From: Thermoplasmatota archaeon
GTDB taxonomy: Archaea > Thermoplasmatota > Penumbrarchaeia > JANQNL01
Length of the DNA stretch: 64,000 bases
NCBI GenBank assembly: GCA_028279585.1
Contig: JANQNL010000166.1
Span: forward strand, 27-64,026
Reading direction: 5' to 3'
Shown: one piece after another, positions 5,785 through 46,411 of the stretch
Layout: every line of letters starts with the position of its first letter
How positions within the stretch are numbered: position 1 is the stretch's first letter
Notes under the pieces: model-generated
Told to the model about the DNA's origin: nothing
What the model saw: the letters and a program-made list of their open reading frames with translations, nothing else
Databases searched by the model: none
Translations under genes and position numbers: made by a program

Positions 5785-5785
5785 G

Positions 5786-15900: not shown

Positions 15901-17080
15901 TGCAAAAGATGACAGTGTCATTATAGTGCTCAACTGTGGAGGCAGATACGGTCCATGCGGTCTTGTTGTGACCTACATTCACGATCTGGTTGTTCGTGAC
16001 CTCTTTGTTCTCCACATAGTCTGTAGAGTTGAACTGGAGCTGGTGAATGCCAATACCCTTTGTGAACGGTCCTGAGTAGCTTGTCCATTCGGTCTCATGG
16101 GCCTCCTTGTACTCGGTGTCGTTCAATCCAGCATAGTTCGAATGACCCGCATCATCTGTTGCGAAGATGAAGGTCTGTGTAGTATCTGTGATGTAATCGT
16201 ATCCCTTGACGTTCACATGGCTCTGTCCGAACCCAAGGGTCGTGGTCGGAGCGTCGTTGTCCATGTAGAAGTCCAGCTTGTGAACGTCGGTGTTCCCAGC
16301 CACATCATAGGCAGTGATATTGATGCTCGTATCCTCATTGACGTTAGGGTCAATGGTATATGTGGATGAGGTTCCTGTCCACCATGTAGATGATGCATCA
16401 TCTGTGTACGCTGCTGGTGAGTCGCCGAAGACGTTAGCCTCGAACTCGACCTTTTCCTTGCCACTGTCTGCGTCTGCCCAGTCGCCAGTGATGTTGAGGG
16501 TGTATGTGCCACCGTCATCGTCACTGTAGATGAAATCATTACCGCCAGCATCGTAGACGGAGAACATCTTGCCGCCCATGTAGCCGACGTTGACCTCAAT
16601 GTTGGAAAGTGACGGATCCACCGCATCGATGGTGAGGCTGGCATAGTTCTCGAACAAGCCTGTGGAGTTGTCCACCCATACGTCGTCACCATCAGCTGCC
16701 TCGATCTCCCTGTTAGGTCCATCTGTGGAACCAGCTATCGAGAAGTTACCGTGATAGTAGCTTGGTGCTACCCAGTCGCAGGTAAGTGCGAACCCTGTCC
16801 CATCGGATGTTGAGGATATGTCCACAACGACCGTGTCGCCTGATGATCCTGCATCTCCAGTTACATTGAGGTAGATGGTCGCTCCAGGTTTGGCCCATGA
16901 GAGTTCCTGGGTCAGAGCCTCGTCATAATAGATCTTGGCCGAATGTGAATCGTTCTGGGCCGCAGTTGTGGAATTTGCAGCAAGTATCACCATCACTGCT
17001 ATCAGTAATATCCCGATACCAATGGGTAAAAGCATTCTTCCATCAGCGATAGTTCTTTTATTGTCATCCTTTGTGACCAT
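9980..17080 (-). CDS. giant (2366 aa) surface protein: signal anchor, beta-sandwich modules, long right-handed beta-helix (PbH1/NosD-like) region, cadherin-like modules, TSP3 repeats, TM, and a cytoplasmic zinc ribbon plus poly-Lys tail
   Basis: GGAGGG lies upstream of ATG 17080. The N-terminal anchor is MLLPIGIGILLIAVMVILAA. Dozens of beta-helix turns are visible (e.g. NTIQECNFGIYLYSGYSPIISDNTIIDSYLDGISL). VNDAPVISNV junctions are present. TSP3 motifs include DTDNDGIPDTLDSDDDGDGWSD and DEDDDNDGWSD. The TM is VLLIVLLVLIFVILFAASVFLLL. The tail carries ECGACGELVPETISECPHCGAEF and ends KPKKKKGKKKKGKSKKGKKRK. Confidence 0.8.
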   Translation of the reverse strand: MVTKDDNKRTIADGRMLLPIGIGILLIAVMVILAANSTTAAQNDSHSAKIYYDEALTQELSWAKPGATIYLNVTGDAGSSGDTVVVDISSTSDGTGFALTCDWVAPSYYHGNFSIAGSTDGPNREIEAADGDDVWVDNSTGLFENYASLTIDAVDPSLSNIEVNVGYMGGKMFSVYDAGGNDFIYSDDDGGTYTLNITGDWADADSGKEKVEFEANVFGDSPAAYTDDASSTWWTGTSSTYTIDPNVNEDTSINITAYDVAGNTDVHKLDFYMDNDAPTTTLGFGQSHVNVKGYDYITDTTQTFIFATDDAGHSNYAGLNDTEYKEAHETEWTSYSGPFTKGIGIHQLQFNSTDYVENKEVTNNQIVNVGHNKTAWTVSASTVEHYNDTVIFCSNLNVQGTLILENVTLVIYATGPGIQVQDGGQLFIWDNDNNSATTNDASVLMGMNSVKFDINVHNGGTLHAMASTFHRVEIMMYDSNITVESCMFEESGEHIRVFNSFPRIANNTFTDPLLDLHPGVMVHSANDYRGKPLEIVGNSIKGTRDIGLYVDGGSFETVHGTGTWFSGIGDSVDSELEFSVNIKGTKNPILYYWDHCDDLTDANGDVKLSTDGGQTFPNTLKTLGSSSSWRENIIDLRQWNNDTVNITFEYQTFGAGNDYGWLIDEIRVVEYNSVNNAVHDLEYSNLDDSEFNNFKNMWVHGRAIDYYSTHTADSWEIGTPTSTSGGPTGAHSGNYCWGTDLDANTGTEASYLELNTSFISAGENLTFYHWYNCGGARVEISTDLGLTWNILDNSSTVYNFGSIELIGGDGFAGDSGGWVLTGIDMDPYWGKEVMIRFAYYNDGPDGGWFIDDIRYEVLAGRTSLVHENAETTTTSLDADGFVCTAPGVVRIENNKIYNVTTGILVEDSMKTVASNNEIGHEDNPDPDRYGIVIDGSSAVVSSNTIEDVDDGGWCGIWIDSNNLRSTGVQAIGNSIKGYNGTDSGIHIQKGSALVSSNTIQECNFGIYLYSGYSPIISDNTIIDSYLDGISLKHFLDPVHVTVDGNDISGCGNNGINAMGYVRGTISNNDVDMAAQRISTGAGIRASSYQYMQLTGNTVMNSEVDGIRLEKHSSTYLYQNSANNNGRIGLYIKDGAEAWVSGTSGNMLSTFDSNELGIFVHDEGPTLDGPITEFYYIRANSNDHEGMRLYNFTGTLEDCYANSNKDAGIYLKNPVGAIIKETTCDTNFDDGILIEGGEDVVLNAVVTNQNANDGVRLYRTSVASFIGSSMTNNLRHGVNLYDDWAQRDDLVVNRGQFNDTTIVEFTDNIVSTNTKNGVYIHYDANPTSNVWTAYINNNDLSYNGLYDLDGGEGIFVDWEVYKNVVTSNTIRRFDGTITVTNGRSIVLSNANIEFLESGNGVFGEVSSSITFDSVTMDVAEGKDDFTFSQSGTTLAISHSTITDASSIYVKPVLGACIVTVTDTVISGGTSGLYLDSALAEIEETTIDDMQFYGIYAKETRMEVEDTTIKNCNQAIYSFESADDASNNNLTMSGSTITMNDQGVILVENHARIYNSTLSNTVTDLDVEGGRAFVYNTSLDKDKCEVLDGASYIERYWYLDVHIQDEYGDAMDNTYLLVKDGKDATVLSKRKVTGSSVLFIPCKEYRQTGTSFDYGTRLHFVQTDAQSLSAEDKYLEKNVTMDRSKSVVFVYNLGPKINDGVLPTLITTNEDIPVYGAFYPYNAFTDTGNITITITTEGDFTVSQRTDLGYDLIPDRNQFGTGKIWVKATDDEGDSTTVKIDVTIISVNDAPVISNVTIYPSNPKAGMDMTIRYDYYDVEEDAVGVETYLWFQKTADGTITNFTQATIGTHKKGEEWYCVFKVTDDAGSKYSNVVTTETIVIGNSVPVIDSAFITPASGVTTNTNLEAGVSGWYDIDKDVSDTKGLLYQWQIHQEDEWLDIPGATGKTLTSDNFVKGDEIRVVVTPYEDSDIGVSRNSDSIKVQNSAPVITSIGIDPEQPTESTSKILALVTATDPDGDEIFYRFRWTSGNGAWGGQEWTVGNGSGENQEITSTIISFWVGNDVTLVIEVRDRAWARGEDATYTFTIEPEVVEVDTDNDGIPDTLDSDDDGDGWSDTTELELATDPLDNRSKPSDFDGDMIPDALDEDDDNDGWSDLEEIRYGTNPKNANEDPDADNNGIADAVDNTSTDGAGGESISFGFQVLLIVLLVLIFVILFAASVFLLLRSRIMPMLGLEDEDEGPDYDALIRAMGDISTNTKLLPAAAGPSVNVDGVDLSALDLNTELVECGACGELVPETISECPHCGAEFDDDIIDPNVSAEEDEMMADLEEDSLDEYDDLDDDWEDEPKPKKKKGKKKKGKSKKGKKRK

Positions 17081-17475
17081 CTAACGCCCTCCTTGAAGAC
17101 TTGGTGCCTAGACTTGGACAGGATAGCCTAGGCTGTGGTCATCTGAATGAGTATTGATATATATTAGTTTTTGAGCTATATGTGGATATAATACATTCTT
17201 AGAAGGGCCAGGAGAGCAGTTGTCATTATCAAATTCCTTTGGGGGAAGTATCCTCGATCGGATGAACAGACGTTGTCAGAATAAAGCTCAAGCTTCGTGA
17301 CCAGGAAATGGAAAGAGAGGTTGTCCCATCATCTTAACTACCGATGATCAGGACCGAGGATGTGACAATATGTCCCAGTATATTTCCTGGCCACTACGCT
17401 TTCCCTTTATTCGAACCGCGTACAGTGTACCTTATATGCATATACTATCTAAGTGGGGTACAAGTGTACCAATCG

Positions 17476-17485
17476 TTATATATAA
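17476..17485 (+). promoter_or_regulatory. TATA-like box for the 24-kb plus-strand gene string
   Basis: TTATATATAA lies about 80 nt upstream of ATG 17563, within the 482-bp AT-rich divergent spacer. Confidence 0.4.
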
Positions 17486-17515
17486 CTCCCACAGATACTT
17501 CGACGCCACCTCGAT

Positions 17516-17548
17516 AAAGGTAGCCAGATGTGTCTGGGGGCTACCTTT
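17516..17548 (+). promoter_or_regulatory. 5'-leader hairpin immediately upstream of the SD of the 2014-aa gene
   Basis: A perfect 10-bp stem pairs AAAGGTAGCC (17516-17525) with GGCTACCTTT (17539-17548) around a 13-nt loop. The stem ends 3 nt before GAAGGAGTG and ATG 17563. Confidence 0.5.
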
Positions 17549-17562
17549 GAAGGAGTGATAAT

Positions 17563-20500
17563 ATGTCTCGAACAGGCCTTTTTTCAACTGTCGACGGTAA
17601 GGTATCGAAAGTACTTCCGTTGTTAGCAGTCCTGATACTTGCTCTATCTGGTCTTCTAGTGGCCATTAGCGCCCAGGAGCCAGATGCACGAGCCAATTAC
17701 AATGCGGAGATCTCCATACTAGTTGTGGACAACACCGAACAGTCCGAGAACTGGGTGGATGAACCATACAAGGACGGTGATGCATCCGGTGGAGGAGGAA
17801 GTTCCACGAACAATGGTGGCAAGGTCTCCGAGGGCACCCTGCTCTCGTATTACCTCACGGCCTTGGAGAACGCTGGATATACCAACGTCAGCTACATGCA
17901 GACGTTCAGTCAAAGGACCTGGTCCTACGATTATCCTTCCTACTCTGACCTGAAGGATTACAACGTTGTCATCTGGTTCACAGGATCGGACTACCCCAAC
18001 GTCAATGAGGAGGACCCATACGACGATGCTTTGGCCCCTTACCTAGACAATGGCGGAAGGCTCTTCATCACCGGCTGTGAGATAGCCGAGGAGCTTGCAA
18101 AGACAACCTCGGACACAGACTTTTTCACAGACTACATGAAGTTCACTTACTCCAAATCCCTTTCCAACCAGGACGTTACCTGGGCAGCAGGTTCACCCAT
18201 CCAGACATCACAGAACCTGTCGATCAATGGTGAGGCAGAGTCTGCCAATAATAACAACAGGATCTCCATTTTATTGCCAGCAGATGCAGCTTGCGAGCCT
18301 ATCCTCCAGATAGGAACAGACACTGTTGGTGTGGCAACATCACATGGTAAGTACAGAGCGGTCATGTTCGGCTTCAACTTCGAAGCGATCTATGGCAGCA
18401 CTGACAGGACCAACACCATGACCGCGGTCCTCGAGTGGCTCTGGGGCATCCCAAGGATCGAGCATACCCCCCTCGGCGACACAGAAGATGTTGAGAACCC
18501 ATACAAAATCACTGCCGATATCAGGGATGCGACTCTGGACACTAGCTCCCTGGCATTGTTCTACAAGACCATAAATTCCTCCAAGGCCGAAAGCGCCTTC
18601 ACCAAGGTTGACCTCAATAGCACCGGCGAGAACACATATGAGGCTTATATCCCAGCTCAAGAGAACGGCACAGACGTCTACTACTTCCTTCGCGCGCTCA
18701 ACCAAAAGGACGGTAATGCTACCCATCCCCTTGGTGTGGATGCGAACAAGACCGCAACCTGGCATACGTTCCATGCAGGGCCGGACAACAAGGCTCCGAT
18801 CATCACCCACACACCCCCGATAGATACAGTGTTGACTGTGGCAAGGACCATCACATGCTACGTGACCGACAACCTTGGAGTGGACCCGAACGGTGTCGAG
18901 CTCATGTATCGCTTTGGAAGCGCTGGTAACTTCACTGACGCGAACATGACACACAAGGGTGCTGGTAAGTTCACTGGCACCATTCCTGGAGCATCCCAAG
19001 GTACCTCCGTTCAGTACAAGATCCAGGCAAGCGATGCTTCTGCAGCTGCAAACACCGTCGTCTCTCCTGTAAATGGTACATACAGCTATGATATTCTATA
19101 CAGCCAGATCCTTGTGGTAAACGACATCGCCTCCAGCTACTACGACAAAGATGGGGATGTGACCGACCTCGAGGACGACCTGGCAGATGTCGACTACGTC
19201 CTTTGGGAGACCGAGGATGACGGCTTCCCAGCTACAACCGATCTTCAGCATTTCTCAACGGTCTTTTGGTGCAGAGGCACCGGCGAGGCCAATGACGAGC
19301 GAGTGGATATGTGGGAGGCCATCATGGATGCTGGAACCAACCTGGTCCTTTCTGGGACTTCCGTTTCAGAGACTTGGTCGAGCTCCCAGACAGAGACCTT
19401 CCTGGAGGACTACTTCCACTGTGAGTCCGGCACCTACTATTGGGGCGATGAGATCTATGGCACCGATGGCGACATCATAGGTGACTCTCTGGACCTTTCC
19501 AGCTACGAGGGTTGGTTCAGCGGTACCGGTGTGGATATCCTCGACAGCTCCGCCAACCAGTGCTTCTGGGCACAGGGTGACGTCTGGTTCGAGGATGGTG
19601 GTCGTGAAGGAGGGGATGATAACTCCGCCTCTGTGGGAGTTTGGGTCGACGAATCTGGTCGCAAAGGACTTCTAATGACCTTCAGGCTCGAGCATGTCCT
19701 CGAATACGGTGATGGAGAGGACCTTGTTCCAAGGATCCTGACCTGGCTCGATGCTCCATCCATTTCGCACACACCGCTCAAGGATACCGAGGACACAACA
19801 GGCCCATACGCTGTGACAGCAACCATCACAGACGATGACCTGGACACGTCCAACATCAAGATGTCCTACAGCACTGACAACTCCACATACACCTCCGTGG
19901 ACATGACGGTGACCACAGGAAACACATACACTGCCAACATCCCTGGTGTTAGCGATGGCACATGGGTGAGATACTACATCTCAGCCAAGGACCTTGCTGG
20001 CCATGAGGGAAGGGCTCCTGCAGCTTCAAAGGCATACACCACCTACAACACGTTCTATGTCGGGGTTGACAAGATACCTCCAAAGATCGTTCATGATAGG
20101 TTGCTGCATACCACATCCACTTCTGCCTACCCGGTTGAAGCAGGTATCACTGACTCACTTGGACTGGACCCATCCAAGGTCAAGGTCCATTACAACCTGG
20201 ACAACAGCGCCACCTACTCCGAGGTCACGATGACCATTAAGGAAGGTGACACGTACGCAGCCGAGATCCCAGGTCAATCCATCGGTTCCACGGTCTACTA
20301 CTACATCACAGCTGCCGACCAGTCCCTGGCTGCGAACGTAGGTAGGAACCCTGCCGAGGGTGTCTATAGCTTCCAGGTCCTGGAGTCCATCCCGGTCCTG
20401 CTCCTTCACGAGGAGGACGATATCTGGTATGGCTTCGACGACATGGAGAAGGAAGAGACTCAGGAGGAGGATGAGATAGATGTCTACACCGAGCTCCTGA

Positions 20501-23500
20501 CAAAGATGGAGGTCCCATACACCTACTACTCCACCTCCGAAAAGGGTGGGATCCCATCCTCCAGAGAACTTGACGATTACGACGTTGTCATCTATGTAAC
20601 TGGCCTTGCATGGTATGCAGAGGACCTCCAGGATTACATGGACGATGGCGGCAATGTGTTCATTGCATCCGAGGTCGCACACACCGGATTCGAGTGGCTT
20701 GCCCCTGACTTCCTTGACGATTACATGCATTGCGAACTATCCCAGAACACAGCCGAGGACTCTCTCATCACTGGCGTTGATGGGGACTTCATCGGTGACG
20801 GCCTAACCTTCGACCTCTTGGGCGATGGTATCATGGGCTTCACAGGACCGCAGATGCTTGAGGTGGATGATAACCAGGCCACAGAGATCTTCGAGTACCC
20901 GACCGGAACTGCCGGGGTCAAGGTCGATGATGAGGATGGGTTCAAGATGGTCTACCTGACCTTCTCCCTATCCGCAGTACCACTGGCCCACAGGGAGGAG
21001 GTGCTTGGCCGGTCGCTGGACTGGCTGCTTGGAATGCCTGGCATCGATCATGTTCCGCTCAAGGACACAGAGGATACAACTGGACCATACGAGGTCAATG
21101 CCACCGTGTCCGGTGAGAGCATCGTTGCGTCGAACGTTAAGATGCATTACTCCATCGACGGTGGAAGCTTTGTCGAGCTTGCCATGACCGAGAGCGATGG
21201 CAAGTATAGGGCGAGCATCCCCGGACAAGCTCATGGTACAGACATAAGTTATTATATCTCAGTAGAGGACGGCGATGGAAACAAGGCAACATCCCCAAGG
21301 GGTGCTGACCAGAACAACCTTGGAAGCCTTCACAACTTCGAGGTCGGTGAGGACTCCACACCACCAACGCTTGTTCATTCCCCGCTATCAGATAACATGC
21401 GCAGAGAGTATTACGAGGCAGAGGTACAGATGGGAGACAATCTCGGGCTGGACCTGGAGGCCACAAAGCTCTACTGGAGAGTGGTTGGGGATACCAACTA
21501 CAACGAGTTGACGTTCACTATCGATGACGACGTTAAGGCGGCCGTTCCAGAACATCTCGTGGCTTATCACACATACCTTCCAGGATACGAACTGGACCCA
21601 GGCGATGTCGTGGAATACTACATCGAAGCTGTGGACATGTCCGTGGCCGGGAACAAGGCCAGGTCACCCGAGACAGGCACCCACACATTCGACATCATCG
21701 AGAGGATGGTGCTTGTTGTGGATGATGATGGTCTTAGCGATTCTGAAGAGCCGATAGTAGACGCACTTGCAGAGCTGGACATAGCCTACGCGGTCGTTGA
21801 ACCGACAGCTGCAAAGCCCATTACCGAGGCCTCACTTGTCTCTTACTCCGCGGTCATTTGGACCACAGGAAACTCCTTCTGGCAGACGATCACCGAGGAC
21901 GAGGCGGACGTGTTATCCTACTATCTCGACAATGGTGGGAACCTCCTGATGACCGGTTCCGGCATCGGGCAGGAGGCAGAACAGGGATGGAACCCATGGG
22001 GAGACTGGACCGATGGTGGAGGTGGCGGACCAAGACCTTTGGCCACCAGGGCAGAAGAGGATACCGTAAGCTCATCGTCCGATGCTCCAGCACCAGCTGA
22101 CGATCCAATTACTGAAGAGCTAGTAAAGGATGAACCCCCAAAGGATGAACCTCCGAAGGATGATGACGGTAAGTCCGACCCTGGCATGCCAGAACCTCCA
22201 CCAGATGGTGAGGATGGTGACGATGGCAAGGACGGTTCGGACGGAGATTTCATCGATTGGTATGAGAAGTACCTCCACGCAGAATATGAGAGCTCATCCA
22301 CCTACTCATCCGTCACTGGCGTCGATGATCACGAGCTTACAGATGGAATTAACTTCAAGCTTGAGACCGACGACCTGTTCGGATGGCTGTCATCCGAGGT
22401 CATAGATCCGATCTCCCCTGCGGAGGAAGTGCTCCAGTATTCCAAGGGAAGCACAGCAGGTCTGCGATACAATGGGACCCACAGGGTCATCTACTTCGCC
22501 TTCGACATTGCAGACATCCAGGAGACCAACGCTACAGAGGAGCTCATCGGAAACTGTGTCGAGTGGCTCATGGAAGGTCAGAGCGCATCGGGTGGGAACG
22601 CCCCGCAGCTGACCAAGGGAAGGCACAAGCTCGAGGACTATGGCAAATACAACTTCACGGTCGAATATTCGGATGCCGATAACGACATCCCTTACCCGAT
22701 CCTCCTGGTCATCGATGACGAGGAGTATGAGATGAAGCCTGTGGACTACGATGATAACAACTACATGAACGGCAAGAGATACTTCATCGAGCTCGATCTC
22801 GGACCTGGTGATCATGACTATTACTTCATGACCGAGGGTGCCGAGGACACGGATACCAGGACCGTTAGTGTCGCTGGTGGCGGTTCCGGTCTTACTGGGA
22901 ACACCGGGCTAATGGCCGGTGCGATAGTTGCTGGCATCATCCTACTGTTGATCATTATCGTCGTGGCCATCGTGGTCGTGCTCATCATTCTTCGGAAGAG
23001 GGCTGGTGGTGACAAGGAAGAAGAAGAGGAGGAGGCACCTGAGGAGAAGAAGGAAGAGGCTGAAGTTGCAGAGGGTGACAAGTACAAGCCCAAGCACGAG
23101 CCCGAAGACAAGTTCAAGAGGCCTAAGGGTGCTGATAAGAACTCATCCTTCCTTGCCCAGGAAGAGGCCCCGCTCGAAGCAGACGAGGTCATTGCACCGA
23201 CAGCAGACTCCAAGTATGCCCGAAAGGGTAAGAAGAAGGGCAAGGGAAAGAAGAAGCCTCAGGTGGAAGCTGCCCCTGCTCCAGCAGAGGTGGAAGCTGC
23301 CCCAGAGGTTGAGCTCTTACCTCCGGCCACAGAGACCATGGATGATCCAGCCACGTTGTCGGAAAGGCCTGGTGTGGTAGCAACAGAGACCCTTCCCGCA
23401 GAGGACATCGAGGAAGAAGAGGTCATGGACGGTTCAGAGATGGAAACGTCCCCATGCCCAGAGTGCGGAAGGATGGTCGGCCTCGATTACCTTGACTGTC

Positions 23501-23607
23501 CACACTGTGGAGCAGAGCTCGACGAAGGTCTGGAATGCCCACTGTGTGGTGCACCTGTAGAAGAAGGCGCTGATGGCTGTGAAAGCTGTGGTGCCAAGTT
23601 CGGTTAG
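17563..23607 (+). CDS. giant (2014 aa) surface protein: four tandem supermodules of about 440-465 aa (flavodoxin-fold DUF4350/ThuA-like unit plus Ig-like units), TM, Glu/Lys-rich tail and C-terminal double zinc ribbon
   Basis: GGAGTG lies 6 nt upstream of the ATG. The signal anchor is VLPLLAVLILALSGLLVAISA. Repeated unit signatures are YNVVIWFTG..LDNGGRLFITG, FSTVFWCRG..MDAGTNLVLSG, YDVVIYVTG..MDDGGNVFIAS and YSAVIWTTG..LDNGGNLLMTG. Repeated Ig-like openers are IEHTPLGDTEDVENPY, ISHTPLKDTEDTTGPY and IDHVPLKDTEDTTGPY. The TM is AIVAGIILLLIIIVVAIVVVLIIL followed by RKR. The tail is CPECG..CPHCGAELDEGLECPLCG..CESCGAKFG. Confidence 0.8.
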   Translation: MSRTGLFSTVDGKVSKVLPLLAVLILALSGLLVAISAQEPDARANYNAEISILVVDNTEQSENWVDEPYKDGDASGGGGSSTNNGGKVSEGTLLSYYLTALENAGYTNVSYMQTFSQRTWSYDYPSYSDLKDYNVVIWFTGSDYPNVNEEDPYDDALAPYLDNGGRLFITGCEIAEELAKTTSDTDFFTDYMKFTYSKSLSNQDVTWAAGSPIQTSQNLSINGEAESANNNNRISILLPADAACEPILQIGTDTVGVATSHGKYRAVMFGFNFEAIYGSTDRTNTMTAVLEWLWGIPRIEHTPLGDTEDVENPYKITADIRDATLDTSSLALFYKTINSSKAESAFTKVDLNSTGENTYEAYIPAQENGTDVYYFLRALNQKDGNATHPLGVDANKTATWHTFHAGPDNKAPIITHTPPIDTVLTVARTITCYVTDNLGVDPNGVELMYRFGSAGNFTDANMTHKGAGKFTGTIPGASQGTSVQYKIQASDASAAANTVVSPVNGTYSYDILYSQILVVNDIASSYYDKDGDVTDLEDDLADVDYVLWETEDDGFPATTDLQHFSTVFWCRGTGEANDERVDMWEAIMDAGTNLVLSGTSVSETWSSSQTETFLEDYFHCESGTYYWGDEIYGTDGDIIGDSLDLSSYEGWFSGTGVDILDSSANQCFWAQGDVWFEDGGREGGDDNSASVGVWVDESGRKGLLMTFRLEHVLEYGDGEDLVPRILTWLDAPSISHTPLKDTEDTTGPYAVTATITDDDLDTSNIKMSYSTDNSTYTSVDMTVTTGNTYTANIPGVSDGTWVRYYISAKDLAGHEGRAPAASKAYTTYNTFYVGVDKIPPKIVHDRLLHTTSTSAYPVEAGITDSLGLDPSKVKVHYNLDNSATYSEVTMTIKEGDTYAAEIPGQSIGSTVYYYITAADQSLAANVGRNPAEGVYSFQVLESIPVLLLHEEDDIWYGFDDMEKEETQEEDEIDVYTELLTKMEVPYTYYSTSEKGGIPSSRELDDYDVVIYVTGLAWYAEDLQDYMDDGGNVFIASEVAHTGFEWLAPDFLDDYMHCELSQNTAEDSLITGVDGDFIGDGLTFDLLGDGIMGFTGPQMLEVDDNQATEIFEYPTGTAGVKVDDEDGFKMVYLTFSLSAVPLAHREEVLGRSLDWLLGMPGIDHVPLKDTEDTTGPYEVNATVSGESIVASNVKMHYSIDGGSFVELAMTESDGKYRASIPGQAHGTDISYYISVEDGDGNKATSPRGADQNNLGSLHNFEVGEDSTPPTLVHSPLSDNMRREYYEAEVQMGDNLGLDLEATKLYWRVVGDTNYNELTFTIDDDVKAAVPEHLVAYHTYLPGYELDPGDVVEYYIEAVDMSVAGNKARSPETGTHTFDIIERMVLVVDDDGLSDSEEPIVDALAELDIAYAVVEPTAAKPITEASLVSYSAVIWTTGNSFWQTITEDEADVLSYYLDNGGNLLMTGSGIGQEAEQGWNPWGDWTDGGGGGPRPLATRAEEDTVSSSSDAPAPADDPITEELVKDEPPKDEPPKDDDGKSDPGMPEPPPDGEDGDDGKDGSDGDFIDWYEKYLHAEYESSSTYSSVTGVDDHELTDGINFKLETDDLFGWLSSEVIDPISPAEEVLQYSKGSTAGLRYNGTHRVIYFAFDIADIQETNATEELIGNCVEWLMEGQSASGGNAPQLTKGRHKLEDYGKYNFTVEYSDADNDIPYPILLVIDDEEYEMKPVDYDDNNYMNGKRYFIELDLGPGDHDYYFMTEGAEDTDTRTVSVAGGGSGLTGNTGLMAGAIVAGIILLLIIIVVAIVVVLIILRKRAGGDKEEEEEEAPEEKKEEAEVAEGDKYKPKHEPEDKFKRPKGADKNSSFLAQEEAPLEADEVIAPTADSKYARKGKKKGKGKKKPQVEAAPAPAEVEAAPEVELLPPATETMDDPATLSERPGVVATETLPAEDIEEEEVMDGSEMETSPCPECGRMVGLDYLDCPHCGAELDEGLECPLCGAPVEEGADGCESCGAKFG

Positions 23608-23620
23608 GAGAACTGATACC

Positions 23621-26600
23621 ATGTTCGGACGCCCTAGAACAGCAGGCCTCATGGCCATAACGCTGACGTTGGTCGTAGTGCTGACGTTCCTTGCAATTCC
23701 AGGAACTAGCGAGGAAGGTCAAGTGCAGACCATTGAGACTAGGGTGTCCGAGGACCCTATGTGGGCAGATGCTGGTCGTATCGAGTGGCGAAAGGACCTT
23801 TCGGGCTCCAACTGGGGCTATACCTCAGCGACCTCCGTCGCTGATGTGAACAATGATGGTTACCTTGAGGTACTGGTCGTTTCCAACAGTTATGGAGAGG
23901 GATACGACAACCGAGAGAGATACTCGACATCGCTCAACATCATCGATAACAACGGCAACGTGATAGACAGCTACAGTCCTGAGAGCACCCATCTGCGTAC
24001 AACGATCCCTCCTATCGTCTGCGACCTAGATGCTGACGGCCAGCTGGAGATCCTCATTGGCGGTTCTGGAGAATCGGCAGACCCTTGGGATTGGAGCTGG
24101 GAGTCTACCTTGCTCTGTCTCGACAGCGACCTGAACCTCCTTTGGACGTTCAACGCGTCCGAGTCATGGACCAACCACTGCCCTGCAGTCGGTGACCTGA
24201 ACAACGATGGCATGCTGGAGATAATCTACGCTGCATCACAGGAGGTCATCTGCATCGACCACAAGGGCGATATGTTATGGGGGATGGAGAGCGACCAGTT
24301 CTGGGACTTCGGGTATTCCCCAAGCATCGAGGACCTTGACCGGGACGGATGGCTGGAGGTCATCCTGGTGACCTGGGATGGCGTGCTCGTCCTGGATGGT
24401 GACCCATCCGACGGGTATGATGATGGAGTTCCGGACTCTGACCACGATCACCTCAAACCGTACAAGCGCACCGACTTCGACCTGCTCTGGTATTTCCAGG
24501 AGAGCATCTTCGGAAAGTGGTGGTGGGGAGACGCTTCTGCCATCGCAGATGTCCGTGGGGATGGGAAGCTCGAGATCATCACAGGGACAGAGAACGGCGT
24601 TCTCGCTTGCTTGGATGCATATGGGAACATGATCTGGAACTCCGAGATAGAGGGAGTTGCATCCACCCCGGTCATCGGGGATGTGGACAATGATGGCAGG
24701 GACGATATCCTGACGCTTACATATGACTGGAACTGGTGGGACGACTGGGGTTGGGAAGAGGACGGAACACTGACCACTAGGGACAACAACACCAACGGGG
24801 ATGATGACGACAAGGATGAGGACCCAGACAGGGACGAGCCATACTGGGAGGATTACTACCACATCGTCTGCATGGACGGTGAGGAAGGGGACATCAAATG
24901 GATGCTCCCTATAGACTGGTGGGGCTCCAACATCATCCTGTGCGACCTGGACATGGACAGGGACCTTGAGGCCATCACAACCTCTGCAGACCAGATCCTA
25001 TGCATCGACTGTGACGAGGATGGGGACGGGGATATCTCCGAGGATGAGATCCTCTGGGAGTTCTCATCTGATTCGTATTACGGATGGTACAACTCGTTCG
25101 TGGTCGCAGACATCGACCTCGACAACCAAATGGAGCTTGTCACCGTGTCAGAGGACATGGTCTATTCCCTCTCCGCAGGCGGCATCTCATCCACAGGCGG
25201 CATCGAGTGGGGCAAGCTGTTCTATGACCTGTACAATACCAATCACTATATTCATCCGATGCAGAGCGGAGTATACGTCTACCCGAAGGATTCTGCATCT
25301 TCGGACGAGAGCATCATGGTCTCCTATGCATCGGCTGGAGAGGTCATCCAGTATGACATGACCGTCCTCAACGCTGGAAAGTATCAGACCTACTATGGCC
25401 AGACCGATGCGGAGTTCTCGGACACTTTCGTGCTCTATGCGGACAATGTTCCAGAAGGATGGTCCGCTGTGCTTTCGAAGCAGCAGGTTACTCTCGGTCC
25501 ACGAGAGACCGAGGACATTACCTTGCAGGTGCAGGTACCTTATGGCGCTGCGAGCGAAGAGGCTGCAAAGATCACCGTGGTAGCGCAAGCTAAGCTTCAG
25601 CCGAGGATCAACGATACTCAGGACACCGTGACGATCGTCAAGGGACGCTACAATGTCAAGCTCAGCTGTGCTGATAACGTCCACGGTGATGGAGTGCCAA
25701 GCGATGATGGTGAGCTCATTGGTGGAGACTCCACAGTGTTCCGCGTCACTGTGACAAACCTTGGGCGTGAGAACGATACCATCATCCTGACCACGGACGC
25801 TCCGTACGGGTTCAATGTGAGCCTGACGGTTCCTGTCATCGAAGGTGAGGCTCGCCTTCCGCTTGGTGCAGGTGAAGCCCGTGACGTTCTAATGATCGTG
25901 GACATCCCGACCTGGGCCACAGGTGGGGACTACATTATCAATATAACAGGGACATCGGAAGGAGATCCAGATGTCTCGGATACGCTTTCTACCACCACCC
26001 GGGTGATGGGTGCGTTCGCTAACATCGTGCTGCGCTGCGACGATCCGGTCAAGGACATCGAGCCAGGCCAGACCTTGGTCTACAACCTGACAGTTCTCAA
26101 CTTCTTAGGGGATGAACTGGAGGTGGAGATAAACCTCACAAGCCCAGACCTTGAGTACGGCTGGGAAGCAAGCTTATCTGCAAACCCTGTGACCGTTGCG
26201 GGATTCGATGCTACAGAACTTACATTGATGATCACGGCTCCGGATGATGCCCTTGCTGACACGCTAGCGGTGTTCGACCTTTCCGCTTCGGTGGAAGGTA
26301 ACATCATGCTGCGCGACCAGCTTCGGGTCTATGCTCGTGTCATTCACGTGTACGGCCTGGACACACAGTTATCCCAGGACATCGCATCCCTGGTCCCAGA
26401 GGGCGTGGTCCATCTGACCCTGGAAGTGGAGAACACCGGTAACGGCTTCGATCACTGGGGGTTGTTCTACGAGGACATCCCTGGAGAATGGACCATCGAG
26501 CGCGACTCGAACCCGATGACGCTTGACCCGCGGAACAAGACCACGCAGACCATCCTGTTCAACATAACTGTGCCTAGATCTGCAGTTGTAGGGACGTACG

Positions 26601-37751: not shown

Positions 37752-38993
37752 ATGGAATCGAACAGTACGAACGAACAGGTGGTCCAACCGGTGAGACGCC
37801 GAGGGGCAAGGAAGTCCCAGAAGGCTCTACCGCCGCAGGCCGCCCAGGAAGCACCGCCCCCAAGGCCTCCACCGATGCAAGGTGAGCAGGACGACCTGGA
37901 ATGGGACGATGGCGGCGGCGGTGATCCTGTTGGAGCTGGCACTCCGTTCACAGACGGTGCCGTGGACGACTATTTGACAGACGATATCAGGGAAGCCATG
38001 AACATGCAGGTGGACCCGCACAACATGGAAGGTGTGGTCCTGAACCTTGCAAGGGACAGCGGACTTCTGCTGGAGGAAGTAGGCAAGGCCATCATCGGAA
38101 AGGAGGACGTTCTCCTGAAGGTCTTCACATCCATCCTCTCGGACGGACACATCTTGTTCGAGGACTTCCCGGGTCTTGCGAAGACGCTGATGGCGAACTC
38201 CTTCGCAGACGCCCTGGGATGTAGGTTCAAGAGGGTGCAGTTCACCCCGGACCTTCTTCCTTCAGATATCACAGGGACCAAGGTGTATGATGAGCGGCGC
38301 GGAGAGTTCTACTTCGAGCGCGGCCCGATCTTTACCAACATCCTCCTGGCAGACGAGATAAACAGGGCTCCTCCGAAGACGCAGGCCGCCCTTCTCGAGG
38401 CGATGCAGGAGAGGCAGGTAACTGTGGCTGGTGTCACATACAAACTGCCAAGGCCATTCGTGGTGCTTGCTACCCAGAACCCCATCGAGTACGAGGGGAC
38501 CTATCCACTGCCTGAAGCGCAGCTGGACAGGTTCAGGGTCAAGCAGTCCATCGGATATCCGTCCCTGGACCACGAGGACGAGATCCTCAAGCGCAGGATA
38601 GAGAGGCAGAAGGACGACGTGGACATCAAGCGTGTCATGTCCCCAGCATCCATCATCAGGATGCAGAGGATAGTGGAGAACGTGTTCGTCGAGGATAGCT
38701 TGAGACGATACATTGTGGCTTTGGTCCAGAAGACCAGGTCCGACAATAGGGTCCTTGTGGGCTCCTCACCAAGGGGTTCTTTGTCGCTACTCAAACTCGC
38801 ACGAGCTGCAGCGGTCCTCAACAACAGGGCCTACATCATACCTGACGATATCAAGGTCTCTGCAATGGGCTGTCTTTCACACAGGCTCATCCTGAAACCT
38901 GAATACCAGATAAAGGGACTGACCAATGAAGAGGTCATCAACGACATATTAGAATCAACACCACTGGACATGGTAGAGAAGTATGTGGACTAG
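37752..38993 (+). CDS. MoxR-family AAA+ ATPase with a low-complexity N-terminal extension of about 100 aa
   Basis: ATG 37752 lies 8 nt after GAGGTG; the ORF track starts at GTG 37743. MoxR signatures are IIGKEDVLLKVFTSILSDGHILFEDFPGLAKT (Walker A variant), FKRVQFTPDLLPSDITG, ILLADEINRAPPKTQAALLEAMQERQVT and VLATQNPIEYEGTYPLPEAQLDRF. The N-terminal segment is Pro-rich and acidic. Confidence 0.9.
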   Translation: MESNSTNEQVVQPVRRRGARKSQKALPPQAAQEAPPPRPPPMQGEQDDLEWDDGGGGDPVGAGTPFTDGAVDDYLTDDIREAMNMQVDPHNMEGVVLNLARDSGLLLEEVGKAIIGKEDVLLKVFTSILSDGHILFEDFPGLAKTLMANSFADALGCRFKRVQFTPDLLPSDITGTKVYDERRGEFYFERGPIFTNILLADEINRAPPKTQAALLEAMQERQVTVAGVTYKLPRPFVVLATQNPIEYEGTYPLPEAQLDRFRVKQSIGYPSLDHEDEILKRRIERQKDDVDIKRVMSPASIIRMQRIVENVFVEDSLRRYIVALVQKTRSDNRVLVGSSPRGSLSLLKLARAAAVLNNRAYIIPDDIKVSAMGCLSHRLILKPEYQIKGLTNEEVINDILESTPLDMVEKYVD

Positions 38994-40302
38994 AAAGGGC
39001 CAGCTCTTTGTAGCGGGAGGCGCCGCACTCGTACTTGCAGGTGTTGTTCTGAACGCACCGTTCGTACTATTTGCTGGGTTCTTCCCGCTCACAGCCGTAC
39101 TCCTTGCAGCGTTGGTCCGTTTAAAGCGTGACATCGAGCGGACCTCGAAAAAGCTCTCTGCAAGGAAGAAGGCTGCAAAGTTGGGCCTGAAGTTCGAACG
39201 TGAGCTCTCACATGCCAGTGTCGTGGAGGGAGATGAGGCTGAGGTAACGTTGAAGGTCACCAACACCACAGCTTTGGTCAAGAGACTGCAGGTCAAGGAC
39301 GGGGTCGCGGACAGGCTCCGTGTGACCTCCGGTCGCAATCACAAGGCCGTCGTCCTTCCTCCCAAGGGAACTGTCGAGCTGAAGTACAAGGTATGGGCAC
39401 CTGTGAAGGGAGTGCATGACCTTGGACCTATAACCATCCGGACCTCGGACATCGCAGACATCTTCTTCGATGAGCTGACCGTGGACGAGAACTCCTCGCT
39501 GATGGTGCATCCGGGACCAGTTCCGACCAAGGGTGTAAGTGTAAAGAGCAAGGTTCCAAAGCTTTACTCTGGCTCTACGATAATCAACAGGAAGGGGCAG
39601 GGGACCGAGTTCTACAGCTTGAGAGAATACGTCGTCGGGGATAACTACAAGGACATCAACTGGACCGCTTTTGCAAAGACCAAGAGATTAATGGTCAACG
39701 AGCACACCATGGAAGCGGTGGTTGAGGTCACGATGTTCCTGGACTACAGGGCCGTTTCGAGCATTGGTCCTGTGATGAACGCTGTGGACGTTGTCTCTGC
39801 AAGAGCTGCTACCTCGATAGCTGACGCTTTCCTCAAGCGTAGGGACAGGGTCGGCATCGTGGTATACAACGACTCCATCCACCAGCTTGGCTGCGAGGGC
39901 GGGATGAAACATCAGCGCAAGATCAGGGATACAGTATCCGGACTCTCGGTTAAAGGAGACCTCGGTCTTGGCTCCGTTGTCAACACACTGATGCACACGA
40001 TCCGCAAGGGCACACCGGTCATCATCATCTCGAGCCTCGAGCAGGACCCCACGGTGCTTCAGGGCATCAAAAAGCTTCGAGCGCTGCGATGCGATGTTAC
40101 GGTTATCTCACCTACAGCGATACCAACCGAGTTGGACAAAGGAGCTCGTTCCGAGGCTGACCTCCAGAAGCTGCAGGTCATCCAGCAGGAGCGTGACGTG
40201 GCCATGGCACAGGCGACCTCGCTTGGTGCCAAGGTCGTGGACTGGGACATCAGGGTGCCTCTAGCAGAGGTCATGGTAGGAGGTGGTCCAGGTGGCCGAT
40301 GA
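38983..40302 (+). CDS. DUF58 (VWA-like) domain protein with N-terminal double TM
   Basis: Overlaps the moxR stop by 11 nt. The N-terminal hydrophobic hairpin is LFVAGGAALVLAGVVLNAPFVLFAGFFPLTAVLLAALV. The DUF58 signature is FYSLREYVVGDNYKDINWTAFAKTKRLMVNEH, followed by a VWA-like VGIVVYND segment. Confidence 0.85.
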   Translation: MWTRKGQLFVAGGAALVLAGVVLNAPFVLFAGFFPLTAVLLAALVRLKRDIERTSKKLSARKKAAKLGLKFERELSHASVVEGDEAEVTLKVTNTTALVKRLQVKDGVADRLRVTSGRNHKAVVLPPKGTVELKYKVWAPVKGVHDLGPITIRTSDIADIFFDELTVDENSSLMVHPGPVPTKGVSVKSKVPKLYSGSTIINRKGQGTEFYSLREYVVGDNYKDINWTAFAKTKRLMVNEHTMEAVVEVTMFLDYRAVSSIGPVMNAVDVVSARAATSIADAFLKRRDRVGIVVYNDSIHQLGCEGGMKHQRKIRDTVSGLSVKGDLGLGSVVNTLMHTIRKGTPVIIISSLEQDPTVLQGIKKLRALRCDVTVISPTAIPTELDKGARSEADLQKLQVIQQERDVAMAQATSLGAKVVDWDIRVPLAEVMVGGGPGGR

Positions 40303-41014
40303 GAAGAAAAAAGGCCAGATGGACGGTCTGATCACAGACGTGGTCCTTGGCATCATCGGTCTGGTCTTCTCGCTCGGACTTGCAGGAGGCTTCATGGCCT
40401 TGACGCATCTGACCGGATGGTTCGCGTTACGGTTCGCGCCCTGGACCTACATTCTTGTTGGAGCGGGACCGGTTATCTGGGGGATAGTTGCGTTCATCCC
40501 TCACATCAAGAGGGGTGTGAAGGTCGGTGACGATACTTACAGCTACAAAGAACCGCTGCATCTGTTCGCTCTTGCTGTGATTGTAGCACCATTGTTCTTT
40601 GTGGAGACCGCTGGTTCTGGGTTCTTCACTGGAAGCTTCATTTGGGTCCTGGTACGAGGGTTGCTGGTCATTGGTTACATCGCAGATTGTGCTATCCTTT
40701 TAGAGCTTGCTGCGTTGTCGGTCAACATCGCTCACAACAAGGTCCAGGATGATGGACCTGGAGGAGGAAAGGTCGGTGCGCTCGCTCCGAAATCGTTGAT
40801 CTTCTTCCTCATCTTCATGCCTCTGTTCATCTTCATCGTCTTCATCGTGATGTGCGCGTTCTGGATCGGCGAGCTCGGTTTGATGCTCGTGCTTCCAACA
40901 CCGATACCGGAAAGCCTGGAGGTCGCCACAGTGTATCCGCTTGCGATCCTGGGGGCTGCGGTGGCGTTGGTGTTCGGGCTGATCTTCCTCGCGATAAGCT
41001 GGATACGTGGTTAG
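40283..41014 (+). CDS. polytopic membrane protein, last membrane component of the MoxR/DUF58 string
   Basis: 243 aa with about 6-7 hydrophobic helices. GTG 40283 overlaps the DUF58 stop, and an alternative ATG lies at 40319. I recognise no family. Confidence 0.5.
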   Translation: MVQVADEKKKGQMDGLITDVVLGIIGLVFSLGLAGGFMALTHLTGWFALRFAPWTYILVGAGPVIWGIVAFIPHIKRGVKVGDDTYSYKEPLHLFALAVIVAPLFFVETAGSGFFTGSFIWVLVRGLLVIGYIADCAILLELAALSVNIAHNKVQDDGPGGGKVGALAPKSLIFFLIFMPLFIFIVFIVMCAFWIGELGLMLVLPTPIPESLEVATVYPLAILGAAVALVFGLIFLAISWIRG

Positions 41015-41042: not shown

Positions 41043-41558
41043 ATGATGCATCGAAGGTTCCTTGCGGTCATTCTTCTTCTCACGATCGCTGTTGCAGCTG
41101 TGGCTTCGTCCGGATGTACTTCACTTCCACTCATCTCTGATGGAGGCTCTGGAGCGCCCCACGCTGAAATCGAGAACCAAGTGCACGACCTTATCAACCA
41201 GCATCGAAAGGACCAGGGCTTGGAGCCACTGAAGTGGTCCAAAACCATCGCGAAGGAGTCCCGTGGTCATAGTGAGAACATGGCCGATGGTAGCGTCGAG
41301 TTCTCACACGATGGGTTCAGCGACAGGGCTGCGAACATCGAGGACGAGATGGGCGGGACCGTGGTAGGGGAGAACGTTGCCATGAACTGGGGGTATGATG
41401 ATCCTGCGCAGGTTGCTGTGACGGGGTGGATAGGAAGTCCAGGGCACAAGGCGAACCTGGAGGGGGATTTTACCCATACTGGTGTGGGTGTGGCGCAGAG
41501 CGAGGATGGGCATTGGTACCTTACTCAAATATTTCTTAAAAAGGAAGAATCAGCATGA
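41043..41558 (+). CDS. CAP/SCP/PR-1-like secreted (lipo)protein
   Basis: From ATG 41043 the N-terminus is MMHRRFLAVILLLTIAVAAVASSGC, a lipobox-like Cys. CAP-domain motifs are SRGHSENMA, GENVAMNWG and GWIGSPGHKANLEGDFTHTGVG. Confidence 0.75.
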   Translation: MMHRRFLAVILLLTIAVAAVASSGCTSLPLISDGGSGAPHAEIENQVHDLINQHRKDQGLEPLKWSKTIAKESRGHSENMADGSVEFSHDGFSDRAANIEDEMGGTVVGENVAMNWGYDDPAQVAVTGWIGSPGHKANLEGDFTHTGVGVAQSEDGHWYLTQIFLKKEESA

Positions 41559-42625: not shown

Positions 42626-42670
42626 CTTGGATGTTAGATTGGACCTTTTTTACCGACCTAAACATCCAAG
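42626..42670 (+). terminator. hairpin downstream of the DUF1848 gene
   Basis: CTTGGATGTT (42626-42635) pairs with AACATCCAAG (42661-42670). The loop contains a T6 run. Confidence 0.4.
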
Positions 42671-42767
42671 CCCTACCGCACCCTATCGTCTCTAACTGAA
42701 TGGGTGCTTGGGCCTTGTAGAAAGCACACGCTCTCGCTAAGTTCCTATCTACAAGAAAAAAAGGTTC

Positions 42768-42801
42768 AGGGCGGCCGGTGAAGACCGCCCTTGGTTTTGT
42801 T
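42768..42801. terminator. bidirectional hairpin terminator between convergent genes
   Basis: A7 is followed by AGGGCGG (42768-42774), a 10-nt loop, CCGCCCT (42785-42791) and then TGGTTTTGTT. T-rich runs follow the stem on both strands. Confidence 0.55.
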
Positions 42802-46200: not shown

Positions 46201-46411
46201 GTGGTTCACCTCATTCGGAATTACCATGTCAGGCTACCGCTATATAGTAACCTTGAGATAAGCCATAATATTATGCTATATAAGATTTGCTGCTGTTATC
46301 TAGGTACTTTAGGCTAGTATATATATAATCATAATAAAGGACCAGTGGTCGGCCGTACCGATGTATGGACCACGAGTCTAATGATTGTTAACATGTTGGA
46401 TGGCTAAACAT

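Follow-up and report, generated by a model that had tools for sequence, protein, structure and literature searches.

Genes for a MoxR ATPase and a DUF58 protein with DUF4350 and transglutaminase/DUF4129 partners form one of the most widespread prokaryotic neighborhoods that are still functionally unexplained, and the clients of the MoxR-DUF58 module are usually not encoded beside it. What such a module acts on is the question raised by a gene string in the window analyzed here (the whole stretch of 64,000 nucleotides [nt], from contig JANQNL010000166.1 of a Thermoplasmatota archaeon). In it, eight plus-strand open reading frames (ORFs) at positions 17563-41014, designated g1 to g8, encode four giant surface proteins (g1 to g4) followed by a DUF4350 protein, a MoxR ATPase, a DUF58 protein, and a polytopic membrane protein (g5 to g8); the next two genes downstream are designated g9 and g10. 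The same string was found in four other uncultured Thermoplasmatota lineages, and the transglutaminase-like domain of g4 has lost its catalytic Cys here as in all of the orthologues. We propose, at a probability of roughly 40%, that the string encodes an ATP-driven module for the assembly and maintenance of a giant surface-protein complex.

An ORF scan returned the eight ORFs exactly as first listed, with all seven junctions as the initial annotation had stated. The string, in which every feature described below lies on the plus strand, comprises g1 (17563-23607; 2014 amino acids [aa]), g2 (23621-27757; 1378 aa), g3 (27793-30183; 796 aa, with a TTG start), g4 (30180-36350; 2056 aa), g5 (36351-37739; 462 aa, with a GTG start), g6 (37752-38993; 413 aa), g7 (38983-40302; 439 aa), and g8 (40283-41014; 243 aa, or 240 aa if the three-codon-shorter public call is used). 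In order, the junctions are gaps of 13 and 35 nt, a 4-nt ATGA overlap, a TAA directly abutting a GTG, a gap of 12 nt, and overlaps of 11 and 20 nt. Motifs of the GGAG/GAGGTG type were seen in the upstream 20-mers of g1 to g6 and g8, in agreement with the report of GGAGG-like motifs before most starts. The public gene calls for the contig give identical products for g1 and g3 to g7 and a g8 that is three codons shorter. They do not record the g2 start at 23621, for which there is an in-frame alternative ATG at 23573; the start at 23621 is nonetheless supported, because orthologues align from residues 3 to 5.

Tight packing alone is ordinary for prokaryotes, and the string is considered to be above chance because its order and its overlapping junctions recur in four other lineages. 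Homologues of g4 were searched first, and the contigs that carried them were then inspected as related loci (L numbers). The window organism, for which a thermosome subunit is encoded in the window, has Thermoplasmatota metagenome-assembled genomes (MAGs) as its nearest relatives, and g1 to g8 recur, as overlapping contigs, in L002/L003, L004, L006, and L089, which represent the four other lineages. The last of these, an ENA contig reached via a g1 homologue, carries divergent upstream genes followed by g1-g2-g3-g4. Overlapping stop/start junctions are kept in the related strings. Identity to the window proteins ranged from 31 to 34% for g1, 35 to 39% for g2, 52 to 55% for g3, 38 to 41% for g4, 28 to 31% for g5, 65 to 68% for MoxR (g6), and 38 to 44% for DUF58 (g7). 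Every full-length g1 homologue and every full-length g2 homologue found lies within one of these strings, and the MoxR gene, which overlaps the DUF58 gene by 11 nt in the window, also adjoins it in L003, L004, L006, and L012. Past g8 the loci diverge: the window continues with CAP and DUF1848 genes, L003 with another giant gene, L004 with AbiEii, and L006 with Peptidase_M24. The genes upstream of g1 likewise differ between loci. Because gene order is conserved in four other lineages while the flanking genes differ, the string appears to be a real, self-contained operon limited to g1 to g8, without g9 and g10, and the synteny comparison thus bears out the single conserved gene string that had been predicted. 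Its promoter likely lies, as read from the sequence, in the divergent intergenic region of 482 nt upstream of g1 (17081-17562), which holds A/T-rich TATA-like elements such as TTATATATAA at about 17477. The complete eight-gene string was seen in these five lineages only; a scan of JGI metagenomes with a g2 alignment returned no further string and only distant FG-GAP propellers (22 to 30% identity over the propeller), none of them near MoxR or DUF58.

The g4 protein consists of a signal peptide, two TSP3 motifs, a transglutaminase-like core (nt 31161-31562, aa 328-461; Transglut_core PF01841, 63.2 bits against a cutoff of 23), an Asp-rich Ca-binding repeat region of ~480 aa (nt 31617-33074, aa 480-965), an immunoglobulin (Ig)-like stalk of the MG2/CarboxypepD_reg type, a transmembrane (TM) helix (nt 35751-35807, aa 1858-1876), a cytoplasmic DUF4129 domain (nt 35919-36107, aa 1914-1976), and a Lys-rich tail. 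The claim that the transglutaminase core and DUF4129 flank a TM helix within this 2056-aa protein thus holds for the order of the parts, but ~1400 aa of stalk lie between core and helix. For DUF4129, the full protein gave 22.3 bits and its C-terminal 216 aa, scanned alone, 26.4 bits (cutoff, 24.8); three relatives gave 30.5 bits (L006), 42.5 bits (L008, a Thermoplasmatota MAG), and 34.0 bits (L007, Marine Group II). The Asp-rich region contains 27 motifs of the DxDxDGxxD type, which together with the two N-terminal TSP3 motifs make 29 overall.

The sole solved structure matched by the g4 sequence is that of the periplasmic domain of Pseudomonas aeruginosa TgpA (PDB 6g49). His444 of g4 and the Asp of its YDPTP motif align with the catalytic His and Asp of TgpA, and Pro400 (codon at nt 31377-31379), the residue preceding the aligned block, stands at the position of TgpA's Cys. 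In a MAFFT alignment, the window and L008 have Pro in the nucleophile column and His in the catalytic His column, where L003, L004, and L006 have Ser and Lys, respectively, so that the triad columns read P-H-D (window), S-K-D (L003/L004/L006), and P-H-E (L008). The column was checked by searching g4 aa 251-520 against 1.84 billion representative proteins and realigning the domains of the best 150. C-H-E (97) and C-H-D (64) were the commonest triads among the relatives' domains, with a full triad in 161/284, and the Cys column is therefore taken to be correctly assigned. As the nucleophile Cys is Pro in the window protein, cross-linking or thiol-peptidase activity of its domain is excluded. On the alignment, the transglutaminase-like domain of g4 is a pseudoenzyme, its Cys gone from the window protein and from every orthologue, and enzymatic cross-linking, which the initial annotation had envisaged, is not upheld. 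A Ser-Lys mechanism is conceivable in L003, L004, and L006 and is not proposed, since it is inapplicable to the Pro variant. Among the relatives from this search, P0149-P0165 include many proteins of 1.5 to 3.3 kaa with two to eight transglutaminase-like domains, in which intact C-H-D/E copies are mixed with copies that lack the nucleophile; in P0149 (2678 aa), Cys occupies the nucleophile position in none of six aligned copies.

The other three giant proteins, like g4, are membrane anchored and strongly acidic, and by predicted topology each of the four combines a single TM helix with a cytoplasmic part and with either a signal peptide or an anchor. A signal peptide opens g1 and is followed by four alpha/beta modules, a TM helix (aa 1792-1810, nt 22936-22992), and a cytoplasmic tail of ~200 aa with a double zinc ribbon at its end (nt 23455-23601). 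The modules, delimited by reading the sequence (nt 17695-18462, 19096-19767, 20386-21042, and 21694-22578), carry the signature 'VV.W.TG ... GG.L..TG ... W L' and are each followed by beta-sandwich domains recognized by eye, one of which matches CBM_56 (56.8 bits). Subthreshold matches to DUF2194, DUF4159, and ABC_transp_aux fall at aa 1359-1478, and the precomputed g1-related hits are PF06283 (ThuA), PF22184, and PF12773. An AlphaFold2 (AF2) model of one module, made from a four-sequence alignment, was poor (pLDDT 45), and its best Foldseek matches were weak (TM-scores of 0.36 to 0.45): STM3548/STM1381 (GATase1-like), OST48/Wbp1, and an IFT52-type/IFT-B complex chain. These matches represent the GldG/IFT52/OST48 'GIFT' fold group and, though weak, agree with the fold assigned to the modules. 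A profile-profile comparison with the DUF4350 family aligned the expected signature weakly, and because it reached only an E value of 0.04 the modules are named GATase1/ThuA/GldG(GIFT)-like by fold and not DUF4350. The description of g1 as a DUF4350-like repeat protein accordingly stands at the level of the fold, with four GATase1/ThuA/GldG-like domains, and not as a family assignment. Double zinc-ribbon (DZR) modules like the one at the g1 C terminus recur in the ORFs at 926-1819 and 57759-58703 (minus strand).

In g2, a signal peptide or anchor precedes an N-terminal FG-GAP beta-propeller carried on a stalk of NEW3/CARDB Ig-like domains (Pfam), and the protein closes with a TM helix and a short tail, rich in Lys, in the cytoplasm. 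The third giant, g3, is predicted to be a type II membrane protein: its N terminus forms a Lys-rich stub in the cytoplasm, its TM helix spans aa 38-56, and its ectodomain carries TSP3-type Ca-binding motifs, 17 by a strict count and 18 by a loose one (TSP3_bac, 92.7 bits). With these and the 29 motifs of g4, the Ca-binding ectodomains that had been predicted are confirmed at the motif level. Conservation is higher in the distal ectodomains, namely the g2 propeller, the g4 N terminus, and g4 aa 400-1000 (which takes in the Asp-rich repeats and the second half of the transglutaminase-like core), than in the membrane-proximal stalks, and it is lowest in the low-complexity tails; for g2, identity is 0.39 to 0.47 in the propeller versus 0.21 to 0.27 in the stalk. 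Lys-rich C-terminal tails such as KKKKGKKKKGKSKKGKKRK occur in at least three giants of the window, g2, g4, and a 2366-aa protein divergent from g1.

All of the domains expected from the initial annotation were found by Pfam (AAA_3/AAA_lid_2, DUF58, DUF4350, Transglut_core, DUF4129, TSP3_bac, FG-GAP, NEW3, and CARDB), the match to DUF4129 being marginal. The DUF4350/arCOG01314-type protein g5 (PF14258, 36.2 bits against a cutoff of 30.4) has an N-terminal anchor (aa 4-22), an extracellular GldG-like domain (nt 36456-37151), a second TM helix (aa 332-350, nt 37344-37400), and a cytoplasmic tail of ~110 aa in which P354 and D429 are invariant across eight homologues, Marine Group II included. 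The product of g6 is a MoxR-proper AAA+ ATPase (AAA_3 PF07726, 218 bits; AAA_lid_2 PF17863, 66.4 bits) whose Walker motifs are intact (A, FPGLAKT; B, ILLADE) and predict an active enzyme. Its disordered N-terminal extension of ~95 aa carries a PVRR[RK] motif (nt 37788-37802, aa 13-17) that is conserved in all four lineages with the gene available and may serve as a docking motif; the remainder of the extension is not conserved. The DUF58 (vWA-like) protein g7 (PF01882, 45.8 bits against a cutoff of 23.4; domain at nt 39619-40107) has an N-terminal TM hairpin (nt 39004-39120), and its vWA-like domain is predicted to be cytoplasmic because the two hydrophobic helices are flanked on both sides by Lys/Arg. 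As MoxR has no signal peptide, both partners of the pair would lie in the cytoplasm, where they had been placed initially. Besides these two, the topology predictions place DUF4129 (g4), the g5 tail, the g1 tail with its zinc ribbon, and the short Lys-rich stubs found in g2 and g3 on the cytoplasmic side.

The last gene, g8, encodes a polytopic membrane protein with six to seven predicted TM helices and without a match to any known family. Each related locus that continues beyond DUF58 has a polytopic protein at this place (206 to 300 aa; about 410 aa in Marine Group II), and Pfam found no shared family, no SpoIIM, and no RDD among nine such positional counterparts. A word-indexed homologue search returned only g8 itself, a profile from 65 Marine Group II counterparts did not detect the window protein, a leave-one-out profile gave E = 0.56, and BLAST gave only a 35-aa C-terminal match (E = 0.006). 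Since these matches are marginal at best, g8 is treated as a positional equivalent and homology is not claimed.

In a wider scan, a DUF58 alignment was searched against one genome per species; of the 547 relatives, the best 80 were inspected and g1 to g8 were mapped onto their loci, with Pfam scans of example loci. Almost all of these 80 are Poseidoniales (Marine Group II a and b), which carry a fixed block of Cdc48, DUF4350 (about 550 aa), DUF58 (417 aa), and a polytopic protein (about 410 aa). None of these Marine Group II loci (about 70) has MoxR, the transglutaminase giant, or g1 to g3 within 10 kb. The Cdc48 AAA+ ATPase gene lies directly upstream of, and on the same strand as, the DUF4350-DUF58-polytopic block in about 70 Poseidoniales genomes (L010-L088; e.g., L081 5707-12479), which may reflect plain synteny or a functional substitution. 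One contig with a typical Marine Group II DUF4350-DUF58 block, L068 (PBRN01000106.1), is labelled Pseudobdellovibrionaceae bacterium and is probably misbinned. The Marine Group II DUF4129 giant (P0065, 2654 aa) stands alone beside ribosomal protein genes, and its alignment with g4 covers the stalk, TM helix, and DUF4129 but leaves out the transglutaminase part. In L008, a transglutaminase-DUF4129 giant is followed by DUF4350, DUF58, and a polytopic protein, and MoxR and g1 to g3 are missing; L012 has MoxR, DUF58, and a polytopic protein. From the Marine Group II, L008, and L012 loci it follows that DUF4350, DUF58, and the polytopic protein are the invariant core, which MoxR and the DUF4129 giant join in some lineages. 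MoxR is therefore not an obligatory neighbor of the module.

Parts of this arrangement have precedents. TgpA is smaller than 700 aa, with an N-terminal polytopic domain, and its TM helix is followed by a cytoplasmic DUF4129 domain. In contrast, g4 has 2056 aa, a signal-peptide start, TSP3 motifs, Asp-rich repeats, and a roughly 900-aa Ig-like stalk, and no DUF3488-type N-terminal polytopic domain was found in it (one hydrophobic segment, the signal peptide, and no such Pfam match). The TgpA operon (PA2875 MoxR, PA2874 DUF58, PA2873 TgpA; PDB 6g49/6g4h) resembles the window in keeping MoxR, DUF58, and an outward-facing transglutaminase-like membrane protein together, and it differs in having neither a DUF4350 gene nor extra giant proteins. 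PA2875-PA2874-tgpA are cotranscribed in P. aeruginosa, the periplasmic domain of TgpA has transglutaminase activity in vitro, and tgpA is essential whereas PA2875 is apparently nonessential (Milani 2012, PMC3507681). The intact Cys-His-Asp triad and measurable activity of TgpA contrast with the Pro at the Cys position of g4. In archaea, operons of DUF4350 (arCOG01314), MoxR, vWA, Ig-like 'S-layer', and 5-TM proteins have been described and a novel secretion or membrane-remodelling system has been proposed for them (Makarova, Galperin & Koonin 2015, PMC5898192). These share with the window a DUF4350 protein that has an extracellular GldG-like domain and a C-terminal TM helix, a MoxR/GvpN-type ATPase, a DUF58-type vWA protein, small polytopic membrane proteins, and Ig-rich surface proteins; the DUF4350, MoxR, and vWA genes, which those operons combine, are contiguous in the window (g5-g6-g7). 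The small polytopic proteins of those operons have five TM helices; six to seven are predicted for g8. The description of that system lists, however, no transglutaminase/DUF4129 component and no counterpart of g1, g2, or g3; its Ig-like partners are of ordinary size (arCOG02884/PF07760, for which Pfam gave no match in g1 to g10), and its vWA protein is considered by Makarova et al. to be secreted, whereas the vWA-like domain of g7 is predicted to be cytoplasmic.

Mycobacterial Rv3689-Rv3695 (membrane protein, DUF4350, MoxR2, DUF58, SpoIIM-like, and RDD) shows the same DUF4350-MoxR-DUF58 order with polytopic neighbors, and the Mycobacterium chelonae DUF4350, MoxR, DUF58, SpoIIM-like, and RDD genes (Rv3691-3695 homologues) are coregulated (PMC8191103); the cluster represents the module in its ordinary-sized bacterial form, without giant ectodomain proteins and with SpoIIM/RDD partners that g8 does not match. 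A MoxR-proper ATPase, a DUF58/vWA partner, and membrane proteins are likewise shared by the operons of MoxR, vWA, and YebA-like transglutaminase-like (TGL) proteins, for which membrane-proximal proteolysis was proposed (Zhang & Aravind 2012, PMC3495828), by Bat/BB0170-0176, and by Rhizobium RL3499-3502, a MoxR-DUF58 operon whose mutants have envelope defects according to Vanderlinde 2011 as cited in PMC5700661. These systems, however, have active TGL peptidases or BatA/B vWA and TPR proteins, which are absent from the window, and no giant Ca-binding proteins. The statement that no described system is known to have this composition must thus be withdrawn for the core, which has been described bioinformatically (PMC5898192, PMC3495828), has been studied experimentally as the TgpA operon (PMC3507681), and has analogues in the Esr and PFNA clusters considered below. 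For the eight-gene string and the giant fused form, the literature search found no paper describing either. New here are the fusion seen in g4, which joins a pseudotransglutaminase, a stalk of roughly 1400 aa, a TM helix, and DUF4129 into a single chain, a giant protein with four GldG/ThuA-like domains (g1), and the fixed operonic linkage of four giants, including the FG-GAP propeller and TSP3 proteins, to the module.

MoxR ATPases and their vWA partners have been reviewed as maturation or remodelling chaperones (PMC3893208, PMC12067865). Together with the Rhizobium and TgpA operons, the Esr pathway of Schaalia, taken up below, also speaks for the proposal, since experiments on it show a module of this kind in the service of a surface filament (bioRxiv 10.64898/2026.09.08.750141). 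In the assembly and maintenance module that we propose, the physical interactions and direction of control inferred are the following. MoxR, as a hexameric AAA+ ATPase, and DUF58, as a vWA-like adaptor tethered by its TM hairpin, would form a remodelling pair at the inner face of the membrane, where the DUF4129 tail of g4, the cytoplasmic tail of g5, and the polytopic g8 would provide a platform for DUF58 docking. With ATP, MoxR would load the giant proteins, bring them to maturity, or extract them, or else change the conformation of the complex; control of assembly by MoxR/DUF58, as suggested by the initial annotation, is plausible. Because its nucleophile is lost, the transglutaminase-like domain is proposed to be a binding or scaffold module rather than an enzyme, one that would bind peptides and hold partner ectodomains noncovalently. 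The GldG-like domains may also be extracellular binding modules that keep the ectodomains together, and Ca2+ would stiffen the TSP3 and Asp-rich repeats. The biological role would be that of a cell-surface coat or of adhesion in a probably wall-less archaeon.

Several observations weigh against this proposal. MoxR is absent beside the module in L008 and about 70 Poseidoniales loci, which argues that the ATPase link is facultative or acts in trans. DUF4129 is marginal in the window g4 and absent in its L004 counterpart; the cytoplasmic tails of g2 and g4 are low-complexity, Lys-rich, and poorly conserved (identity of 0.02 to 0.25 over the last 100 to 200 aa); DUF58 lacks the canonical DxSxS of a metal ion-dependent adhesion site (MIDAS), the window protein having D-Y-R-A-V-S and Marine Group II having D-S-R-D-I-S at this position; the homology of g8 across loci is without statistical support; and Sec/YidC could be enough for inserting the giant proteins. 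A more specific and decidedly tentative version of the proposal is that g1 to g4 could be the clients of the MoxR-DUF58-DUF4350-DUF4129 module, which would act as a dedicated ATP-driven inside-out controller (loader, extractor, or conformational switch) of very large, membrane-anchored, Ca2+-dependent surface proteins with the pseudotransglutaminase as an extracellular client-binding jaw; the ordinary-sized TgpA and Rv3689-3695 versions would then serve clients encoded elsewhere. As four candidate clients are fixed in one operon across five lineages, the string offers a concrete, testable hypothesis on the targets of the module, and it nominates candidates in organisms that are not yet cultivable. 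Since the Cys is lost in every string member, transglutaminase chemistry is, here at least, not what retains the domain in the module; the loss should turn attention towards binding and scaffolding. The string also adds to the picture of surface building in the probably wall-less Thermoplasmatota.

Control could also run from the outside in, with the g2 propeller, and perhaps other ectodomains, detecting a ligand, cell, or virus and MoxR-DUF58 relaying the signal across the membrane to outputs in the cytoplasm, for instance the g1 tail with its zinc ribbon. The model for this is Esr of Schaalia odontolytica, in which deletion of a transglutaminase encoded beside MoxR/vWA genes releases a propeller-on-Ig-stalk filament into the supernatant, and for which covalent anchoring of the filament by the transglutaminase EsrD is proposed (bioRxiv 10.64898/2026.09.08.750141); the Bifidobacterium PFNA cluster is similar, with a long FN3-repeat surface protein together with MoxR, vWA/DUF58, and transglutaminase (PMC8430577). 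Both have in common with the window a long surface protein encoded with the module, the layout of g2 is that of EsrA (an N-terminal beta-propeller on Ig-like repeats), and orthologous MoxRs have precomputed PF20030 bpMoxR matches. The Esr and PFNA clusters, however, contain Ser/Thr kinase, phosphatase, and FHA output proteins, none of which was found in the window string or in L003, L004, and L006, nor was any other known output domain found in g1 to g8 or the orthologous strings. The propeller is of the WD40 type in Esr and of the FG-GAP type in g2, where it is the better conserved part of the protein (identities as given above), the opposite of what a diversifying sensor would show, and the proposed covalent anchoring contrasts with an inactive domain and giants that each have their own TM anchor. 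The g6 score for bpMoxR, 23.3 bits, is below the 27-bit cutoff. The MoxR-vWA ternary conflict systems (Kaur et al. 2020) combine bpMoxR with VMAP, iSTAND, or a cytoplasmic effector, a combination not seen in the string; apart from an unrelated DUF1848, no effector-like domain was found in g1 to g10. PADLOC reported no defense family in g3 to g8, its only strong match being g10 DUF1848, which is not conserved with the string, and a reading as a defense system was rejected. A sensor is on these grounds unlikely, though not negligible. Another rival is a dedicated secretion or insertion system, in keeping with the reported need for Mycobacterium tuberculosis MoxR1 in RipA export. Export of the giants as cargo, with DUF4350, DUF58, MoxR, and the polytopic protein as translocon or holdase on the arCOG01314 model, would account for the cargo-like giant genes directly upstream of the module and for a neighborhood of DUF4350, MoxR, vWA, a small polytopic protein, and Ig-rich surface proteins that was predicted as a novel secretion system (PMC5898192). 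Yet the N-terminal signal or anchor sequences of g1 to g4 are all ordinary and would suit Sec, no match to a channel-forming or secretion-ATPase family was obtained, arCOG02884/PF07760-type proteins are absent, and the giant DUF4129 protein of Marine Group II is encoded far from the DUF4350-DUF58 block; we regard a dedicated secretion or insertion system as quite unlikely.

An enzymatic role, in which the transglutaminase core cross-links the matrix or is the peptidase of a MoxR-vWA-TGL membrane-proximal degradation system, draws on the Transglut_core score, on the in vitro activity of the best solved relative, TgpA (PMC3507681), and on the degradation system predicted for the MoxR-vWA-TGL operon (PMC3495828). 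It is hard to reconcile with the Pro400 of the window protein, the Ser in three orthologues and Pro in L008, and the change of His to Lys in those three orthologues, in a column verified by the C-H-E and C-H-D domains; the domain of g4, being extracellular, is also beyond the reach of a cytoplasmic unfoldase. This role is very improbable, and we hold the same of the view that there is no functional unit at all and that large secreted-protein genes have accumulated as a surface-protein island beside a housekeeping MoxR module. Genes for giant surface proteins of many kinds, on either strand, indeed take up about 40 kb of the 64-kb window, and most relatives (Marine Group II) have the DUF4350-DUF58 block without g1 to g4. 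In five lineages, however, the module is preceded by the same four giants, their order unchanged and their junctions overlapping, and the genes beyond g1 to g8 differ at each locus.

Directly 3' of g8 lies g9 (41043-41558, plus strand), which encodes a CAP/YkwD domain with a lipobox-like ASSGC after a signal sequence, followed by g10 (41555-42601, plus strand), the DUF1848 gene; neither is kept in the orthologous loci. The g10 product matches the PADLOC family RTasDUF1848 (DRT) at 6e-29, with no adjacent reverse transcriptase gene. Besides g1 to g4, the window encodes five further very large secreted or anchored proteins, which bring the giants to about 40 of 64 kb, or about 60% of the window: a 1046-aa ORF without a Pfam match, secreted or anchored (5726-8866); a 2366-aa beta-helix/NosD, MAM, and TSP3 protein divergent from g1 (9980-17080, minus strand); a PPC/PKD/Big_9 protein (42811-46227, minus strand); a PETase-like hydrolase with six PKD domains (49656-52625, minus strand); and a CarboxypepD_reg/SdrD_B/Big_5 protein (52862-57601). 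No tRNA genes or Rfam matches were found anywhere in the 64-kb window, and there were no notable DNA tandem repeats in the gene-string region. Between the convergent genes that end at 42601 (plus strand) and 42811 (minus strand), the segment at 42640-42800 contains a T6 run together with an inverted repeat rich in GC (GGGCGGCCGG...GACCGCCC), with A and T runs on its sides, and may be a bidirectional terminator.

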